DNA from: an uncultured Kiloniellaceae bacterium
GTDB lineage: Bacteria > Actinomycetota > Acidimicrobiia > Spongiisociales > UBA11373
Length of the DNA stretch: 53,281 bases
NCBI GenBank assembly: GCA_964194935.1
Contig: CAXMOL010000148.1
Location: 1 to 53,281 of the forward strand
Reading direction: 5' to 3'
Below are positions 33,239 to 40,294 of this stretch, one piece after another; the stretch's first letter is position 1; the number at the start of each line of letters is the position of its first letter. The translations under genes and the position numbers were made by a program. The notes beneath the pieces were generated by a model. That model was not told where the DNA came from and made no database searches. It worked only from the letters and a program-made list of their open reading frames with translations.

Positions 33239-33483
33239 AGGGCGAAATCGTCAATCGAGTAGTCGAGTACATCTCCAAGGAGATCGTCGAGAACGCCGAT
33301 GAAGTGGAAGTCACGATCGTCGAGGAAGGCCCCGACGAGGTGACTGCCGAGGTGCGGGCAGCCAAGAGCGACATGGGTCGGGTCATTGGCCGGCGCGGTC
33401 GGGTAGCTAAGGCGATTCGAGTCGTGGCTCAGGCCGCTGCCGACGAAGAAGGCTTGCAGGCTGAGGTTGAGTTCATCGACTGA
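33235..33483 (+). CDS. khpA: KH-domain RNA-binding protein
   Basis: [17 protein letters not shown] motif. Located between rpsP and rimM. Confidence 0.92.
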
Positions 33484-33976
33484 CCGGATCGTTGTAGGAC
33501 GGATCGGCAAACCCCACGGGCTCAATGGGGAAGTCACTGTGCTTCCCGATACCGATGACCTTGGGCGTTTTGTCGTCGGGTCGACCTTTGAAACTGACAC
33601 CGGCCGCTCACTCGTGGTCGTATCCGCCAAACCGTTTCGGGACAAGGGTTTGCTCATTCTCTTTGAGGGGTTTGCTCGCCGCGATGCGGCCGAAACGCTG
33701 CGAGGCCAACTGCTGACTGTGGATTCTGCAACCCGACGACAACTTGCCGATGACGAGTTCTGGCCGGCCGATCTGGTCGGGCTCGCCGCAGTTACACCGC
33801 AAGGGGCGACGCTGGGGATCGTCGATCGCCTCGAGTTCGGACCTGGCCAGGATCGGCTGGTGGTCGTCACTCCCGACGAAAGAGAAGTTCTTGTGCCGTT
33901 CGTGTCCGACATCGTGGCGGATCCTGCGGACGGACAGATCGTCGTCGACGCCCCCGAGGGGCTTTTTGGTGACTGA
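33467..33976 (+). CDS. rimM: Ribosome maturation factor RimM
   Basis: VGRIGKPHGLNGEV, DEFW..DLVG and EVLVPFV..APEGL. Confidence 0.94.
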   Translation: MSSSTDRIVVGRIGKPHGLNGEVTVLPDTDDLGRFVVGSTFETDTGRSLVVVSAKPFRDKGLLILFEGFARRDAAETLRGQLLTVDSATRRQLADDEFWPADLVGLAAVTPQGATLGIVDRLEFGPGQDRLVVVTPDEREVLVPFVSDIVADPADGQIVVDAPEGLFGD

Positions 33977-35084
33977 GGATCGCAGCGCCAGTTTCGTCGA
34001 ATTGTTCTTCGACCTCGTATTCGTCTTTGGCGTCACCCAGGTCGTGTCGTCGATCCACGGTCATCTCGACTGGGCGACGCTGTGGCGCGCCGCGGTCGTC
34101 CTCACGCTGCTGTGGTGGGCGTGGTCGCAGTACACCTGGCTTGCCGGCCATACCGATTTCGACGACTTCGGTCCCCGGATCGTCATCCTGTTCGCTACTG
34201 CCGGAGCGTTTCTCACCGCGGTGGCTGTAAGGGGGGCCTGGGGGAGCGACGGGCCTTTCTTTGGCGCCGGCTACTTCGGGGTGATGGCTCTCGGGGGAGT
34301 GTTCTACTGGGTGCGGGTACGGGGCACGGAGCGCATGCAGGGAGTGCTGATATACGTGCCGCAGATGTTGGCCGGAGCAACCCTTGTCCTCGCCGGCGGG
34401 TTTGTCGAAGGGGACGCACGGAGCTGGTTCTGGATCGGCGGGGTTGTCGCCAACCTCGTGGCTGCGCTCGCCGCCGGCCGGTTCGAGTTCGAGATCAGCG
34501 CCGCCCACTTCGCAGAACGTCACGCCCTGTTCGTCATCATTGTGTTGGGAGAGGCTTTGATCGCTATTGGCGTCGGAACTGTCGGACACGACGGCACTGC
34601 CGAGTTCTATCTGGCTGGGACGGCAATGCTGGGCATCGTGCTCGGATTGTGGTGGTCCTACTTCGATTGGCTGTCTCAAGTGGGGGAGCAGGAACTAAAG
34701 ACCGCAACCGGACTCCAAAAGGGCAGGCTGGCGAGAGACGCCTACACGATGTCCCACCTCCCCCTGATAGCCGGCGTCATCTTGTTCGCGGTGGGAACCG
34801 AGGAGCTTCTGGTCCATCCAGAACGTGCCCTCGACGAGGCGGCGCGCTGGGCCTTTCTGGGTGGCCTCATGCTCTTCTTCGGTGCCCAGATCCTGATGGC
34901 TTGGCGATTGGTCGGCCAGATGGCATGGGAGCGGATCGGTCTGATAGTCGGCTTGGCCGCAATCGGGTGGGCCCTCGGTTCGGCGGCCGGTGTAGTGATG
35001 GTGGGATTGGTTGCCACCCTCGTACTGGCAGTGCTTGGCGCCGAGTCAGTTCGATTCCGGGAGGAGCTGCGGAGCTTTCACTAG
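33969..35084 (+). CDS. ltrA: Low temperature requirement protein A family membrane protein
   Basis: ELFFDLVFV, WWAW, HFAERH.LF.IIVLGE, LWWSYF and HLPL. Start moved to GTG 33969. Confidence 0.88.
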   Translation: MTEDRSASFVELFFDLVFVFGVTQVVSSIHGHLDWATLWRAAVVLTLLWWAWSQYTWLAGHTDFDDFGPRIVILFATAGAFLTAVAVRGAWGSDGPFFGAGYFGVMALGGVFYWVRVRGTERMQGVLIYVPQMLAGATLVLAGGFVEGDARSWFWIGGVVANLVAALAAGRFEFEISAAHFAERHALFVIIVLGEALIAIGVGTVGHDGTAEFYLAGTAMLGIVLGLWWSYFDWLSQVGEQELKTATGLQKGRLARDAYTMSHLPLIAGVILFAVGTEELLVHPERALDEAARWAFLGGLMLFFGAQILMAWRLVGQMAWERIGLIVGLAAIGWALGSAAGVVMVGLVATLVLAVLGAESVRFREELRSFH

Positions 35085-35875
35085 GCCGCGCCCTTGGGTA
35101 TCAATGCCAGCTGACGAGATTGGGCGACGAGTCGACCCGACTCGTCCCACAGTTCACCGTCTTCTTCGAGGAATCCTCCTGTTATGAAACGCGTCGTAAA
35201 GGCGCAGCGGAGCCATCCCGGGAGGGGCCGAGCGCGGATGTGGGCAGTGAGTTCGATAGTGGGGGTCCAGGAGATCGGCAGATTGGCGTTGAAGATCGTG
35301 GGTGGAAACGCATCAACGGCCACCAGGAGAGCCATCGTGTCGAGGGGCTCGTCGTCGCGCAGCCGGAACCATCCCTGAATGTGCGGCCGGCCGCTCGGGT
35401 TTCCTCCTGCAAACAGCGAGTCGGCTGGGTCAAGCCTGATTTCGACCCGCCCCATAAACGGCGGGGGAAAGGTCTCGGTGGGTTCTATAGGCGTGCATTC
35501 CTCCGGAGGGGGCAGGTCTGGAGGACCTGACTCCAGCCGCTCGACGCTCTCGGACGGTTCCAACGTCCCGTAGGTTCCGAGCACGGCGACGAGGGTCTTG
35601 TCGGCCGCCATCGTCGAACGGGCGACGGAGAACCGTCGCCCGGATCGCAACAGGTCCGTCTCGATGGACACCGGTCCGGGCTTGCCCGGCCGGAGGTAGT
35701 GAGCCGTAACAGAGACGGGATCCGGTCGATCGGCTGCGTGGGCAGCAGCTCGGGCAGCAATGGAGAGCAGATATCCACCATTGGCTCTGCCCATGATGTC
35801 CCAACCCGGCTGAATTTCGCCGGAGTAACTGCCACCACCGGTCTCGGCGACAGCGGTGGCTTCGGCCAGGTTCAC
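35081..35875 (-). CDS. TesB-like double hotdog acyl-CoA thioesterase family protein
   Basis: 'W..MGRANGGYL', 'VTAHYLRP', 'DAFPP..WTPTIELT' and 'EEDGELWD..G.LVAQSRQLA'. GTGA overlap with the gap stop. Confidence 0.85.
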   Translation of the reverse strand: MNLAEATAVAETGGGSYSGEIQPGWDIMGRANGGYLLSIAARAAAHAADRPDPVSVTAHYLRPGKPGPVSIETDLLRSGRRFSVARSTMAADKTLVAVLGTYGTLEPSESVERLESGPPDLPPPEECTPIEPTETFPPPFMGRVEIRLDPADSLFAGGNPSGRPHIQGWFRLRDDEPLDTMALLVAVDAFPPTIFNANLPISWTPTIELTAHIRARPLPGWLRCAFTTRFITGGFLEEDGELWDESGRLVAQSRQLALIPKGAA

Positions 35876-36885
35876 GTGGTTGGCTGGAGTTGGCCGAGGC
35901 GCTCGATGAGGTCGACCACCCGATTCGAGTAACCCCACTCGTTGTCGTACCAGGAGAGCACCTTTACGGTGTTCCCGGCGAGGACCTGGGTCGACGGGGC
36001 GTCGAAGATGCTCGAGTGCGGATTGCCGATGATGTCGGTCGACACCAGTGGAGCTTCGCTGTATTGGACGATCCCTTTCATCGGGCCCTCTGCAGCCGTC
36101 CGCACCGCTGCGTTTACCTCGGCGACCGTGACATCGCGGTCCAATTCGACTACTAGATCCACGGTGGATCCGTCAGGGACCGGTACTCGCATGGCAATGC
36201 CATCGAGTTTCCCGTCCAACTGGGGCAGAACCTTGCCAACAGCCTTTGCTGCTCCCGTTGTGGTCGGGATGATGTTCTCGGTCGCTGCCCGGCTCCTGCG
36301 GAAGTCCTTGTGGGGGACATCGGCCAGCCGTTGGTCGTTGGTGTATGCGTGGACCGTGGTCATCACGCCGCGTTTGATTCCGAACGAGTCGTCGAGAACC
36401 TTTGCTATCGGAGCGAGACAATTGGTGGTGCATGAGGCGTTCGACACGACGTGGACATCTGAATTGAGGTCCTGTTCATTTACGCCGAGCACGATCGTCG
36501 CATCAAGCTCGTCCTTGGCAGGAACGGTGAGGATCACCCGTTTTGCGCCGGCCTCGACATGCTTCATGACGGCATCTCGCGTCCGGAACACGCCGGTTGC
36601 CTCGATAACGACATCTACGCCCATTTCAGCCCACGGCAGGTCGCCGGGATCGCGCTCGGTGAGCAGCTTCGCCCTATGCCCACCGGCCTCGATATACCCG
36701 TCGGTGAGGGTGACCTCGCCGGGGAACTCGCCCATGACGGTGTCGTACTTGAGGAGGTAGCCAGTCATCTCGTCGTCGGCGAGATCGTTGATGGCAACGA
36801 TCTCGATTCCGGCCTCCGGCCGCTGTGCGACGACTCGAAAGACGCTTCGGCCGATCCGGCCGAACCCATTGATGGCGATCTTCAT
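35872..36885 (-). CDS. gap: Type I glyceraldehyde-3-phosphate dehydrogenase (canonical)
   Basis: INGFGRIG, catalytic SNASCTTNCLAP, TTVHAYT, TTTGAAK, MRVPV and WYDNEWGY. Start moved to ATG 36885. Confidence 0.97.
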   Translation of the reverse strand: MKIAINGFGRIGRSVFRVVAQRPEAGIEIVAINDLADDEMTGYLLKYDTVMGEFPGEVTLTDGYIEAGGHRAKLLTERDPGDLPWAEMGVDVVIEATGVFRTRDAVMKHVEAGAKRVILTVPAKDELDATIVLGVNEQDLNSDVHVVSNASCTTNCLAPIAKVLDDSFGIKRGVMTTVHAYTNDQRLADVPHKDFRRSRAATENIIPTTTGAAKAVGKVLPQLDGKLDGIAMRVPVPDGSTVDLVVELDRDVTVAEVNAAVRTAAEGPMKGIVQYSEAPLVSTDIIGNPHSSIFDAPSTQVLAGNTVKVLSWYDNEWGYSNRVVDLIERLGQLQPTT

Positions 36886-37907
36886 GATGAGGCTCCCTGA
36901 CTTGCGAACGACGCCATGCGCTCGATGGCGTCCACGACCCTGGCGGCGTAGCCCCAGCCGTTGTCGAACCACACGATTCCCTTGATCATCGTCTCGTCGA
37001 TGACCAACGCGGCTAGCCCATCCCACAGGGCGCTGTTGGGACTCCCGATGACGTCGCTGGAGACGATCGGGTCCTCCGTGTAGCCAATGACCTGGTTGCC
37101 TTCGGCTGCGGCGCGCATCGCGTCGTTTAGTCCCTCGATCGTGGTCGGGGTGTTGACGAAGGCGACCAGATCGATGTTCGACCCGTCGGCGACGGGAACG
37201 TTTAGCGCCATGCCTGCCAGCTTGCCGGCAAATTGGGGGAGAACCTTTTCAACGATCTCTGGCGAATTGGTGCCGGTCGGGATTATGTTTTCGGCCGCGG
37301 CCCGCGACATACGAAGGTTGTCGCCGGGTACGTCGGCCAGGCGCTGCTCGTTGGTAAATGCGTGGACGACGGTGAACATCGCGCGGTCGAGGCCAAAGTG
37401 CTCATCGAGCACCTTGAGAATCGGTGCCAGCGCATTGGAAGTGTTCGAGCCAAGAGCGATGACATCGTCGTCGGGTCCGAGCACCTCATCGTTGACACCG
37501 ACGATCAGGGTGTCCATCTCGTTCCAATCCTCGGGTGTAGAAGCCAGCACGACCTTTGACGCCCCGGCGTCCAGGTGTCGGCGGCACTCGGCGAGTGTTC
37601 GATGGCGACGGGTGGCCTGAACGACGATGTCGACCTTGTGGGCACTCCAGTCGACCTCGCCCGGTTCTGCTCCGTCGAGAATTGGAATCTTGCGGCTGTC
37701 AACGACGAGGTCTGATCCGTCGAGATCGACGTCCCCGGGGTATCGCCCAAAAATAGTGTCGAACTCCAACAGATAGACGAGTGCAGCCGGGTCGGCGATG
37801 TCGGCGATTGCCGCCACCTCGATTCCCGGTTTCTGCTCGAGTTGGCGAAATACGTTGCGTCCGATGCGGCCGAAGCCCATCAATCCGACGCGAATCGGGT
37901 CGGTCAT
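36882..37907 (-). CDS. GAPDH paralogue lacking the catalytic Cys (probable pseudoenzyme)
   Basis: Full-length GAPDH fold (GFGRIG, VHAFTNEQRLADVP, RAAAENIIPT, WFDNGWGY), but the active site reads GSNTSNALAP. Confidence 0.88.
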   Translation of the reverse strand: MTDPIRVGLMGFGRIGRNVFRQLEQKPGIEVAAIADIADPAALVYLLEFDTIFGRYPGDVDLDGSDLVVDSRKIPILDGAEPGEVDWSAHKVDIVVQATRRHRTLAECRRHLDAGASKVVLASTPEDWNEMDTLIVGVNDEVLGPDDDVIALGSNTSNALAPILKVLDEHFGLDRAMFTVVHAFTNEQRLADVPGDNLRMSRAAAENIIPTGTNSPEIVEKVLPQFAGKLAGMALNVPVADGSNIDLVAFVNTPTTIEGLNDAMRAAAEGNQVIGYTEDPIVSSDVIGSPNSALWDGLAALVIDETMIKGIVWFDNGWGYAARVVDAIERMASFASQGASS

Positions 37908-38039
37908 CAGGTCCCTTCTTCAGTGAGCTCAGCGTACCGCTCCACGGTTCACAGTCGGCCGCGAGATCGTCGCTGTCGCTTAGTCGATGGCGGGGGTCGA
38001 TCACGAGCGGCCGATTCAGGTGATTGATGATTCGTAGGT

Positions 38040-39155
38040 TCAGCCCTGGCGGTGGATCGCGCCTTCGGCGACCCAGCCCTCGGCGCCTTCGGCGGCGACC
38101 ACATGTGCCCAGCCGCTCAGGGTTCGTTTTGCCAGGTACCAGTTGCCCGGCGCCAGTTCGGCAATCGTCTTCGTGTGGTCGGTGAGGTCGAATACATCGG
38201 TGGGGGCCATCACATAGCACCAGTAAGGCCCGCTCCGCGGCACGGGTTGAGGCACGTGTTCGGTGGCTGTTTGGTCGGTCATCTTGTCGGTGTCCGGATC
38301 TGGAGCCGCGGGTTCGTCCGTAGTTTCCGATTTCGGCTGAGCTGACGGCTCGGATGGATGAGCCGGCGCAGCCGGCGGAGCGGGTACAGCCGGCGGAGCG
38401 GGTACAGCCTTTGGCGCCGAAGGCGCGGGCTCCGGCTTAGAACTTTGGCGGGCAGCAGGAATGCTGCCTGATCGCTGCTCCTCTCGCCGCTGTTGCTTGA
38501 TTGTCGGATTGATCAGGGAAGCGAGGATGAAGCCCAGCCCTGCTGTGGCCGCGGCGATGCCGGCCAAGGACGGATAGGAGACCTGGAATCGTCCGAACTC
38601 CTGACCGATGAGGGTTAGACCGGCTCCGGTGGCGATGCCGCCCAACGCCGCTGCCGACCGGGCCCAACGTCGGCGCGATGCAATTGCGCCGAGTTGACCG
38701 GTGATGCCTCCAAGGGCCAATCCCAGCGCGGTGAGCCCGGTCAGCGTGGCGAGCGGGAATCGTCCGGATACCCGAACCCAGACCGAGGCGGTGCATCCGT
38801 CTGTGGAGCCTTCGGCGCGGAACAGGCCGACTCCGTATGGACTCACGTCGTCGAGCGTGATAGTTGCGAGGAACTCCTGCTCCGGAGTCGCGTAGGTGGT
38901 GGTGTTCGACTCCACTGTGACCGGCCCGATGATCATCTTTAGTTCTGCTGACCTGGTTCCCGCGGGATCTGACCCTGAGAAGATGAGAGTGTCGTCGGTG
39001 TTCAGTTCGAGTGGGCTACTGAGCGAGTCGATTCGATCCGCCTCGACACCATTGAAATCGACGGTGCACGATCCGGATACCTGGGCCTGCGCAGGGGTCG
39101 CTCCGATGAGCACCGCACTACACACGAGCAAGAACGAGGAGAGTCTCCGAGCCAC
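38040..39155 (-). CDS. Membrane protein: signal peptide, beta-rich domain, about 3 TM, Pro-rich linker, C-terminal SH3-like domain
   Basis: 'PAQA|QVSG' cleavage-like site, Gly-rich TM helices and 'GWAHV....EGWV' SH3b-like tail. Start moved to GTG 39155 (TATCGT 6 nt upstream). Confidence 0.7.
   Translation of the reverse strand: MARRLSSFLLVCSAVLIGATPAQAQVSGSCTVDFNGVEADRIDSLSSPLELNTDDTLIFSGSDPAGTRSAELKMIIGPVTVESNTTTYATPEQEFLATITLDDVSPYGVGLFRAEGSTDGCTASVWVRVSGRFPLATLTGLTALGLALGGITGQLGAIASRRRWARSAAALGGIATGAGLTLIGQEFGRFQVSYPSLAGIAAATAGLGFILASLINPTIKQQRREEQRSGSIPAARQSSKPEPAPSAPKAVPAPPAVPAPPAAPAHPSEPSAQPKSETTDEPAAPDPDTDKMTDQTATEHVPQPVPRSGPYWCYVMAPTDVFDLTDHTKTIAELAPGNWYLAKRTLSGWAHVVAAEGAEGWVAEGAIHRQG
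38369..38404. repeat. 18-bp tandem duplication in the Pro-rich linker
   Basis: CAGCCGGCGGAGCGGGTA x2 (AVPAPP repeats on the minus strand). Confidence 0.85.
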
Positions 39156-39207
39156 CCGGTGACGATACAGGGCGGTTTCACAGTCGGTGCGCCGATACTC
39201 TCCGTCT

Positions 39208-39960
39208 GTGCGCATAACGATTGTCACTCTGTTTCCGGCCTTCTTCGACTCGCCGCTCGATGTCAGCATCGTCGGTCGAGCGATTGAGGCTGGGTTGATC
39301 GACCTCGACATCGTCGATCTCAGACAGCATGGACTGGGTCCGCATCGACAGGTGGATGACGCACCGTTCGGGGGTGGACCCGGCATGGTGATGATGGTCG
39401 AACCGCTCGCCACAGCGCTAAAGCCGTTGAATGATTCTCATCGCGTGTTGCTGACGCCGGGTGGTGATCCAATGACCCAGGACCACCTCGATCGTTGGGC
39501 GCAAGCCCCTCATCTCACTTTGGTGTGTGGCCGTTTCGAAGGAGTCGATGAGCGGGTTGCCGAACATCTGATCGACGAGCAGGTCTCGCTGGGGGACTTC
39601 GTGATCGCCGGAGGCGAAGCGGCTGCCGTTGCAATTGTTGAGGGAGTTGCCCGTCTGCTTCCGGGGGTCATTGGGAATCCTGAGTCGACTGAATCGGAGA
39701 GCTTCCGCGATGGACTGCTGGAGGAAGCGCAGTACACCAGGCCGGCGGAGTACCAGGGGTGGTCCGTTCCCGAGATTCTGCTGAGCGGTGACCACGGCAG
39801 GATCGCCCAATGGCGCCACCAACAGCGCCTGGAGCGCACCAAGCGCCGCCGCCCCGATCTCGTTGAAGAATTCGTCGTGACCGAGAGGGAAGGGTATGAT
39901 CCGGCGGCGCCGGACGGCCGTCCGCGCTCCTCCGAAGGGACTCCCGATGAACACGCTTGA
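39208..39960 (+). CDS. trmD: tRNA (guanine37-N1)-methyltransferase
   Basis: [38 protein letters not shown] and LLSGDH. Confidence 0.96.
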
Positions 39961-40294
39961 CCAGGTCGAGGCTGAATTCCTCCGCGACGACATTCCTGAT
40001 TTCAGCCCCGGGGACAACGTAAAAGTCCACGTGCGAGTTGTCGAAGGCGGTCGCGAGCGCGTTCAGGTGTTCGAGGGTGCCGTGATCTCCCGTGATGGCG
40101 GAGGCCTCAGCGAGACCTTTGCGGTCCGCAAGATCAGTTTTGGTGTCGGGGTCGAGCGGATCTTCCCGCTGCACGCACCGATCATTCACGAAATCGAAGT
40201 GACTCGGCGAGGCGACGTTCGCAGAGCAAAGCTCTACTACCTGCGCGACCGGGTCGGCAAGTCCGCTCGCATCAAGGAGAAGCGGGACTCCTAG
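39947..40294 (+). CDS. rplS: 50S ribosomal protein L19
   Basis: [35 protein letters not shown] and [10 protein letters not shown]. Confidence 0.97.

Follow-up and report, generated by a model that had tools for sequence, protein, structure and literature searches.

Few enzymes are as well studied as glyceraldehyde-3-phosphate dehydrogenase (GAPDH), which in bacteria is regarded as a homotetramer. Paralogous subunits are combined in the chloroplast enzyme of plants, where GapA and GapB form one heterotetramer and one of the two is regulatory in character; both of these subunits are catalytic, regulation is exerted through a Cys-bearing C-terminal extension of GapB, and the two genes do not form an overlapped operon. 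Outside the GAPDH family, the trypanosomatid ‘prozymes’ of S-adenosylmethionine decarboxylase and deoxyhypusine synthase are dead paralogues under selection that form a heteromer with the active paralogue and control its activity, and HisZ (with HisG) and the large subunit of ADP-glucose pyrophosphorylase are paralogues without catalysis that act as regulatory subunits of hetero-oligomers. The A2B2 GAPDH of plant chloroplasts is treated in PMC11025378. The DNA that we analyzed is a 53,281-nucleotide stretch from an uncultured bacterium placed in the Acidimicrobiia (contig CAXMOL010000148.1; the whole stretch is called the window below). In it, a gene for a GAPDH paralogue that has lost the catalytic Cys (gene A) overlaps the start of a canonical gap gene (gene B). 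This pair recurs in several phyla and, as judged from sequence, points to an undescribed two-subunit form of GAPDH.

Both genes are on the minus strand, arranged head to tail. Residue numbers in motifs and comparisons follow the B. stearothermophilus enzyme and were placed by motif. The features of the pair on which the argument relies are these:

36882..37907, minus strand: gene A, a 341-residue GAPDH paralogue with an ATG start, from the open reading frame and its translation (protein P0001)
35872..36885, minus strand: gene B, a canonical type I gap of 337 residues counted from the ATG at 36885 (protein P0002)
36882..36885, minus strand: ATGA, shared by the TGA stop of A and the ATG start of B (TCAT on the plus strand)
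37912..37917, minus strand: AAGGGA, a Shine-Dalgarno-like motif 5' of the ATG of A, read from the sequence
36893..36897, minus strand: GGGAG, a Shine-Dalgarno-like motif for B within the 3' end of A, read from the sequence
37443..37445, minus strand: AAC, the codon for Asn155 of A, which aligns with catalytic Cys149 of B
37200..37202, minus strand: AAC, the codon of Asn236 of A, at the aligned position of Arg231 of the Ps site
36957..36959, minus strand: GGC, the codon of Gly317 of A, at the aligned position of Glu314 (WFDNGWGY)
37269..37355, minus strand: S-loop of A, residues 185-213, with QRLADVP the same as in B by alignment

The original prediction described A as intact, provided with its own ribosome-binding site and joined to the gap start by an ATGA overlap, all of which is borne out by the sequence; the list of open reading frames also holds a longer, GTG-started frame for B (35872..37026). 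The two proteins are identical at 150 of 335 positions (45%, BLASTP), and each substitution that had been listed for A appears in this alignment: ASCTTNC is replaced by GSNTSNA, with AAC at 37443-37445 standing for the catalytic Cys, RRSR by RMSR, TTGAAK by GTNSPE, MRVP by LNVP and DNEWGY by DNGWGY. Relative to B, which has Cys149, His176, Arg231 and Glu314, this amounts to the replacement of Cys149 by Asn, of Arg195 by Met (Met200 of A), of Arg231 by Asn and of Glu314 by Gly, and Gly209-Ala-Ala-Lys of B becomes Asn-Ser-Pro-Glu. Two of the affected residues, Arg195 and Arg231, hold the anion of the Ps site (the substrate phosphate) together with Thr179 (PMC9287727, in excerpt). The alignment likewise supports the earlier statement that A keeps the NAD fingerprint (GFGRIGR), the catalytic His176 and a near-identical S-loop (TNEQRLADVP and TNDQRLADVP in the A/B pair); Asn313 is also unchanged. 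With GxGxxG, Asp32 and Asn313 in place, the NAD-binding residues of A make up a predicted cofactor site.

Both proteins contain the Gp_dh_N and Gp_dh_C domains, those of A with Pfam E values of 1e-26 and 6e-43. Against TIGR01534 (type I GAPDH, EC 1.2.1.12), which has a cut-off of 367.2 bits, A scores 299.1 and B 448.7, so that B passes this model, and A lies under every GAPDH cut-off in NCBIfam. An AlphaFold2 model of A, a monomer built from 69 sequences, has a predicted local distance difference test score of 91, and its S-loop region alone is low (57-61). Superimposed on solved GAPDHs with Foldseek, the model gives a TM score of 0.92 to 1gd1 at 43% identity, and phmmer matches A to type I GAPDH with an E value of 2e-82. 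The fold of A is thus that of a type I GAPDH, yet its curated score, Cys149 and Arg231 all fail. In common with the type I enzyme (GapA; B. stearothermophilus, PDB 1gd1), A has the two domains and the fold and keeps GxGxxG, Asp32, His176, Asn313 and the S-loop; it differs in the absence of Cys149, Arg231, Arg195 and Glu314, in forming a clade of its own and in lying always just upstream of a true gap. From plant GapA/GapB it is set apart by the missing Cys149 and by the absence of a Cys-bearing C-terminal extension, as the C-terminus of A is a short tail without Cys. Epd (E. coli GapB) resembles A as a GAPDH paralogue of changed function in genomes with a true gap, and it retains the catalytic Cys. 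A is not Epd, with 243.7 bits against 539 for NF010058, 240.2 against 530.55 for TIGR01532, and Asn at position 149.

The Asn in place of the nucleophile is not a product of chance, since position 149 is Asn in all 120 of A's best homologues (63-97% identity); in these homologues, and in Acidimicrobiia, GSNTSNA is almost fixed. For three locus pairs with unsaturated synonymous divergence (dS 0.37-0.49), the ratio of nonsynonymous to synonymous substitution rates (dN/dS) was 0.092-0.105 for A and 0.063-0.096 for B; in the other 52 locus pairs dS was near or above 1, which makes their ratios unreliable. The frame of A is intact in the window and in all complete copies that were read. Decay of the orthologues had been named beforehand as an outcome that would refute the proposal, and with dN/dS of about 0.1 and intact frames A is not decaying.

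The original prediction also proposed a search for tandem gap pairs whose first copy lacks the Cys, and scans with A sequences as queries uncovered a conserved module in several phyla, with the A family spread over Acidimicrobiia, Acidobacteriota, Desulfobacterales, Myxococcota and others. In a first scan with A as the query, restricted to one genome per species and to the best 80 of 277 relatives' loci, a canonical gap (SNASCTTNC) lies directly 3' of A in 76 of the 80 loci; three of the remaining four show the first gap residues before the contig ends, and the fourth has two bases left. A second scan, which took an A sequence from Holophagales as the query and the best 80 of at least 588 relatives, drew loci from Acidobacteriota, Desulfobacterales, Anaerolineales and others, and found gap downstream in 79 of the 80, with the start of gap visible in the last. 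The two scans partly overlap and together yielded 153 distinct A and 136 distinct B sequences; at every locus with downstream DNA, in both scans, a canonical gap follows right after A. Of 140 distinct junctions, with start codons assigned heuristically (the candidate closest to where the alignment begins), 81 have a spacing of -4 and 40 one of -1, so that the genes overlap in 121/140, and the rest are at most 35 nucleotides apart; Shine-Dalgarno-like motifs, from a lenient motif set, are present at 136 of these junctions. Gene order that is conserved across phyla together with a stop/start overlap is typical of the subunits of one complex. Cys149, Arg231 and Glu314 are found in all 136 B sequences. 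The nearest loci of A belong to metagenome-assembled genomes (MAGs) of Acidimicrobiia.

Some irregular loci and proteins were noted during these searches. A search for longer proteins (40 matches) gave no clean A-B fusion; P0272, P0273 and P0274 were considered as fusions and rejected, as they carry Arg-rich out-of-frame stretches between a good A and a good B and are read as frameshifted assemblies. In two Acidimicrobiia MAGs (L032:5989-7158 and L036:5989-7167) the A frame is about 50 codons longer and overlaps B by 157 nucleotides, through a lost stop or an assembly error. In four Acidobacteriota MAGs, apparently from one assembly campaign (L173, L176, L177 and L179), B is split into several frames, probably by indel errors rather than as pseudogenes. 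Two database representatives, P0123 (2089 residues) and P0137 (1455 residues), have two to four GAPDH units per chain, all with canonical SCTTN motifs.

The host assembly of the window (2.29 Mb, 88% complete) contains A and B as the only GAPDH homologues found, and B is therefore, as far as visible, the housekeeping gap. The wider class was represented by a sample of 201 genomes (the unpublished G197 being counted in this tally only). Two or more matches were present in 7 of the 8 other genomes of the window's own family, in 23/23 genomes of family f2, in 2/6 of f4 and in 32/36 of f12, whose genomes are of about 1 Mb; none of the ten genomes of f3 had more than a single match, which is also the number in many other families of the sample. 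The pair was read out in five of the ~1 Mb genomes, where A reads SLGSNTANAVAP and residue 231 is Thr.

To define what the members of the A family have in common, residues were counted over the 153 distinct A sequences. The position of Arg231 is occupied by Asn in 143, by Thr in 5 and by Arg in 1, and that of Glu314 by Gly in 145 and Ser in 8, and never by Glu; Asn6 is replaced by Met in 139 sequences and Gly209 by Asn in 108. His176, Ser148 and Arg197 are each kept in 153/153, Asn313 in 152 and Asp32 in 150, and Thr150, Thr208 and Tyr317 are invariant or nearly so. Arg195 is retained in 88. Position 149 is far more variable, with Asn in 68 sequences, Cys in 64, Ser in 9, Val in 5, Ala in 3, Ile in 2, and Asp and Gly in 1 each, and the tree of A requires at least 12 switches between Cys and other residues. 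Because 64 of the 153 sequences keep Cys149, the loss that defines the family is that of Arg231 of the Ps site together with Glu314, and the loss of Cys is secondary and repeated. The order that these counts suggest is that the grip on the substrate (Arg231, Glu314) went first and the nucleophile later, at least 12 times, with Asn becoming fixed in Acidimicrobiia. Since Cys149 has been lost in some members and kept in others, whatever property the family shares needs no Cys. Five columns that are at least 90% conserved within both families carry different residues in A and B (Met/Asn6, Leu/Ala161, Asn/Arg231, Phe/Tyr311 and Gly/Glu314). The parts of A with the lowest entropy are the GxGRIGRN dinucleotide-binding loop (0.33, against 0.31 in B), His176-Pro188, the NVPV..DGS..DLV strand and WFDNGWGY.

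These counts bear on two claims made earlier. The original prediction held that orthologues with Cys would speak against it: there are none among the 120 close homologues, but the wider family has many. The catalytic and phosphate-site losses are real in the A of the window. The notion of a concerted loss of chemistry is weakened by a Cys loss that is secondary and repeated, and room is left for a residual or different activity in the Cys-bearing members.

Most of the Cys-bearing A sequences (from Acidobacteriota and Desulfobacterales; e.g. L157:2492-3511) read SNGSCTAHCAAP. His is found at position 152 in 79/153 A sequences, often with Cys153 as well, and Cys, His and Cys near His176 in the Cys-bearing members may form a metal or redox site.

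In a FastTree phylogeny of 237 GAPDHs, all 85 A rows fall on one side together with 8 database representatives, and all 78 B rows fall in one starred clade with 2 representatives and one unpaired gap. The internal order of the two groups is mirrored, Acidimicrobiia being split from Acidobacteriota/Myxococcota alike in A and in B. The other unpaired gaps of Acidimicrobiia are placed elsewhere in nine cases and as sister to the B clade in three (L089-L091); in two of the latter (L089 and L090, from G125 and G077) the gap frame extends over some 640 codons, perhaps through a fusion or through read-through at high GC. In a 47-row IQ-TREE analysis under a site-mixture model, A forms one split with an SH-aLRT value of 100 that adjoins the paired B sequences. 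Constraining A and B to group together costs 1.6 log-likelihood units (p-AU 0.49 in the approximately unbiased test; tree unrooted), on which ground A may have arisen by an old duplication within the B lineage. A recent duplication of B was rejected, given the 45% identity and the separate clades over several phyla.

The S-loop is an element that the partners share. RLADVP is present in both partners in 122/134 pairs and in none of 13 unpaired Acidimicrobiia gaps; the 5 of 61 representatives that have it fall without exception inside the A or B clades. Gene conversion was considered as the source of the common loop and rejected, since identity at third codon positions is 0.54 in the heptapeptide against a background of 0.55. 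Two columns specific to paired B sequences, Ala185 and Val187, lie in the S-loop and are common to 98-100% of A; these are small numbers, which common ancestry could produce.

We favor the reading that A is a folded, NAD(H)-binding and, in the window, non-catalytic GAPDH paralogue that would form mixed tetramers with B, and we hold it with evenly balanced confidence. It is suggested by the stop/start overlap across phyla, the matching phylogenies of A and B, the position of B as the only gap, the fact that ~1 Mb genomes keep the pair, the purifying selection on A, the dispensable nucleophile, and the constraint on cofactor-binding and oligomer-forming elements. The mechanism that we envisage is as follows. 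A and B would be made together from one overlapped gene pair and would assemble into mixed GAPDH-type tetramers, in which glyceraldehyde-3-phosphate would be turned over by the B subunits only. A would supply interface, above all the S-loop that lines the cofactor site of the neighboring subunit, and would add a nucleotide pocket without turnover; in this way it may set the stability, the cooperativity or the NAD/NADH response of B. The NAD(H) binding of A, the hetero-oligomer, its stoichiometry and the regulatory effect are all what we infer from the comparison of sequences. A broader version, put forward tentatively and with some leaning against it, is that several phyla (Acidimicrobiia, Acidobacteriota, Desulfobacterales, Myxococcota and others) may have an obligate two-subunit GAPDH as their housekeeping form for glycolysis and gluconeogenesis, in which the degenerate subunit would bind NAD(H) without turnover and exert control through a shared S-loop core, as a ‘GAPDH prozyme’.

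The prozymes are the closest working analogy to A; their folds differ from that of GAPDH, they are eukaryotic, and control of B by A is a proposal. What A has in common with them is the loss of catalytic residues, a fold that is kept in the model, purifying selection, and a constant co-occurrence and co-inheritance with the active partner, the last being conditional on a search that started from A. HisZ/HisG and ADP-glucose pyrophosphorylase belong to families unrelated to GAPDH, for which the literature searches turned up no regulatory subunit of this sort.

Several observations weigh against a mixed tetramer with a non-catalytic A. The Cys149/His176 dyad is present in 64/153 A sequences, mostly from Acidobacteriota and Desulfobacterales, and enzymatic activity is still conceivable for members outside Acidimicrobiia. 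The replacements at Asn231, Gly314, Met6 and Asn209 are specific and conserved rather than random, a pattern that a remodelled ligand pocket with its own function would likewise explain. Because every locus was reached from an A query, gaps of the B clade without A are under-sampled. A is missing from one genome of the window's own family, G129 (95% complete), whose single gap is at another locus, and A is therefore not indispensable; this gap has an S-loop of the solo type and is 63-67% identical to gaps of other phyla and 69% identical to the B of the window. G129 was not counted as a ‘natural knock-out’ of A, because its gap lies at the other locus and may be a replacement. When paired B is set against 56 other canonical GAPDHs, no more than four columns turn out specific to it, and A shares two of these. 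The ~1 Mb genomes contain A, yet their B reads ALAETT in place of RLADVP. Plain inheritance could account for the common S-loop, given that A and B as one clade are not rejected (p-AU 0.49).

The most serious of the other explanations is that A works by itself as a homo-oligomeric, NAD(P)-dependent protein whose active-site pocket has been remodelled, either as an enzyme without the grip on the C3 phosphate or as a metabolite binder, and that it lies beside gap only through a shared pathway and co-regulation. We consider this unlikely, though well within reason. It would account for the (near-)invariance of His176, Ser148, Thr150, Thr208, Arg197, Asn313, Tyr317 and the cofactor motifs in the 153 A sequences, for the fixation of the changed positions (Asn231 in 143/153, Gly314 in 145/153, Asn209 in 108/153 and Met6 in 139/153), for the almost invariant GSNTSNA of Acidimicrobiia and for the 64/153 members that keep Cys149. 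It fits poorly with a position 149 that may be C, N, S, V, A, I, D or G and has switched at least 12 times: Val, Ala, Ile and Gly are no substitutes for a nucleophile, and so no single chemistry at this position can be common to the whole family. Pathway neighbors, moreover, rarely keep a stop/start overlap at 121/140 junctions over several phyla, and the S-loop of A, whose role is in the oligomer only, is the same as that of B.

If A instead had a moonlighting or assembly role without a stable complex, as a chaperone for the folding of B, a decoy for oxidants or inhibitors, or a nucleic-acid binder, as GAPDH is reported to be, its co-expression with B and its dispensable Cys149 would be compatible with that, and the Cys-bearing members could take oxidative hits for B; nothing specific favors such a role, the strict conservation of the cofactor motifs and the S-loop would be left unexplained, and the Asn149 forms of Acidimicrobiia cannot be thiol decoys. 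We regard it as improbable. Least credible by far is that A is a superfluous copy turning into a pseudogene. The lost catalytic and substrate-binding residues and the one relative without A would suit it, against which stand the intact frame, a dN/dS of about 0.1, the recurrence of the same signature residues in several phyla and the retention of A in genomes of about 1 Mb.

With respect to precedent, the original prediction knew of no characterized example, and full-text literature searches (supplements not covered) agree with it in giving no description of a bacterial Cys-less GAPDH partner. In excerpts of a review (PMC12041015), ‘pseudoenzyme’ is used for ALDH16 only. A search of the ESM Atlas returned generic GAPDH clusters only. 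The three sets of 80 loci obtained with A queries are all MAG records with no isolate among them, which may explain why the family has escaped description. In the databases, A genes at present go by ‘type I glyceraldehyde-3-phosphate dehydrogenase’ or by ‘GAPDH NAD-binding domain-containing protein’, and metabolic reconstructions count A as a second GAPDH because of these names. Should mixed tetramers of A and B exist, a conserved and translationally coupled non-catalytic partner would represent a new quaternary and regulatory design at a core step of carbon metabolism, in lineages that are abundant in sediment and soil and mostly uncultured; the A family would also offer a clean natural case of an enzyme paralogue turning into a pseudoenzyme.

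Downstream of the pair lies one further gene of the same strand:

35081..35938, minus strand: acyl-CoA thioesterase gene, downstream of B, with Pfam domains 4HBT_3 and 4HBT_3C

This gene has an alternative GTG start at 35875, which shares GTGA (35872-35875) with the stop of B, a second stop/start overlap in the row. The thioesterase also follows B in L003, L004, L006 and L007, and a 53-residue piece of it is present at the cut end of L005; it is probably in one operon with the pair, in the closest relatives only. A scan of 34900-38300 gave no promoter-like site, and a terminator scan of the same interval gave one terminator-like match on the wrong strand, both scans being uninformative at 62% GC. 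One 260-nucleotide metatranscriptome contig covers the 3' end of B, and the A/B junction is covered (36809-37017) by one contig from a run whose RNA origin is a guess; neither was used as evidence for co-transcription, because such contigs are too few and cannot show a single transcript. The public runs that contain this stretch are mostly marine sediment metagenomes.

The genes rimM and trmD/rplS are usually neighbors in one ribosomal-protein operon. In the window (33467-40294) rimM (33467-33976) and trmD (39187-39960)/rplS are separated by a minus-strand block of thioesterase, B, A and a hypothetical gene and by an LtrA gene on the plus strand, and in many relatives rimM is on one side of the pair, with trmD on the other side in several. 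The hypothetical gene upstream of A (38040-39413, minus strand) encodes 457 residues with a Pro/Ala-rich middle and no Pfam match, and counterparts of 40-66% identity lie beside trmD in relatives. As for the pathway, phosphoglycerate kinase (PF00162) was not found in the window's own 88%-complete assembly (G000); it is present in five relatives, and in G057, G023, G133 and G088, for which both places are listed, it lies far from the pair.

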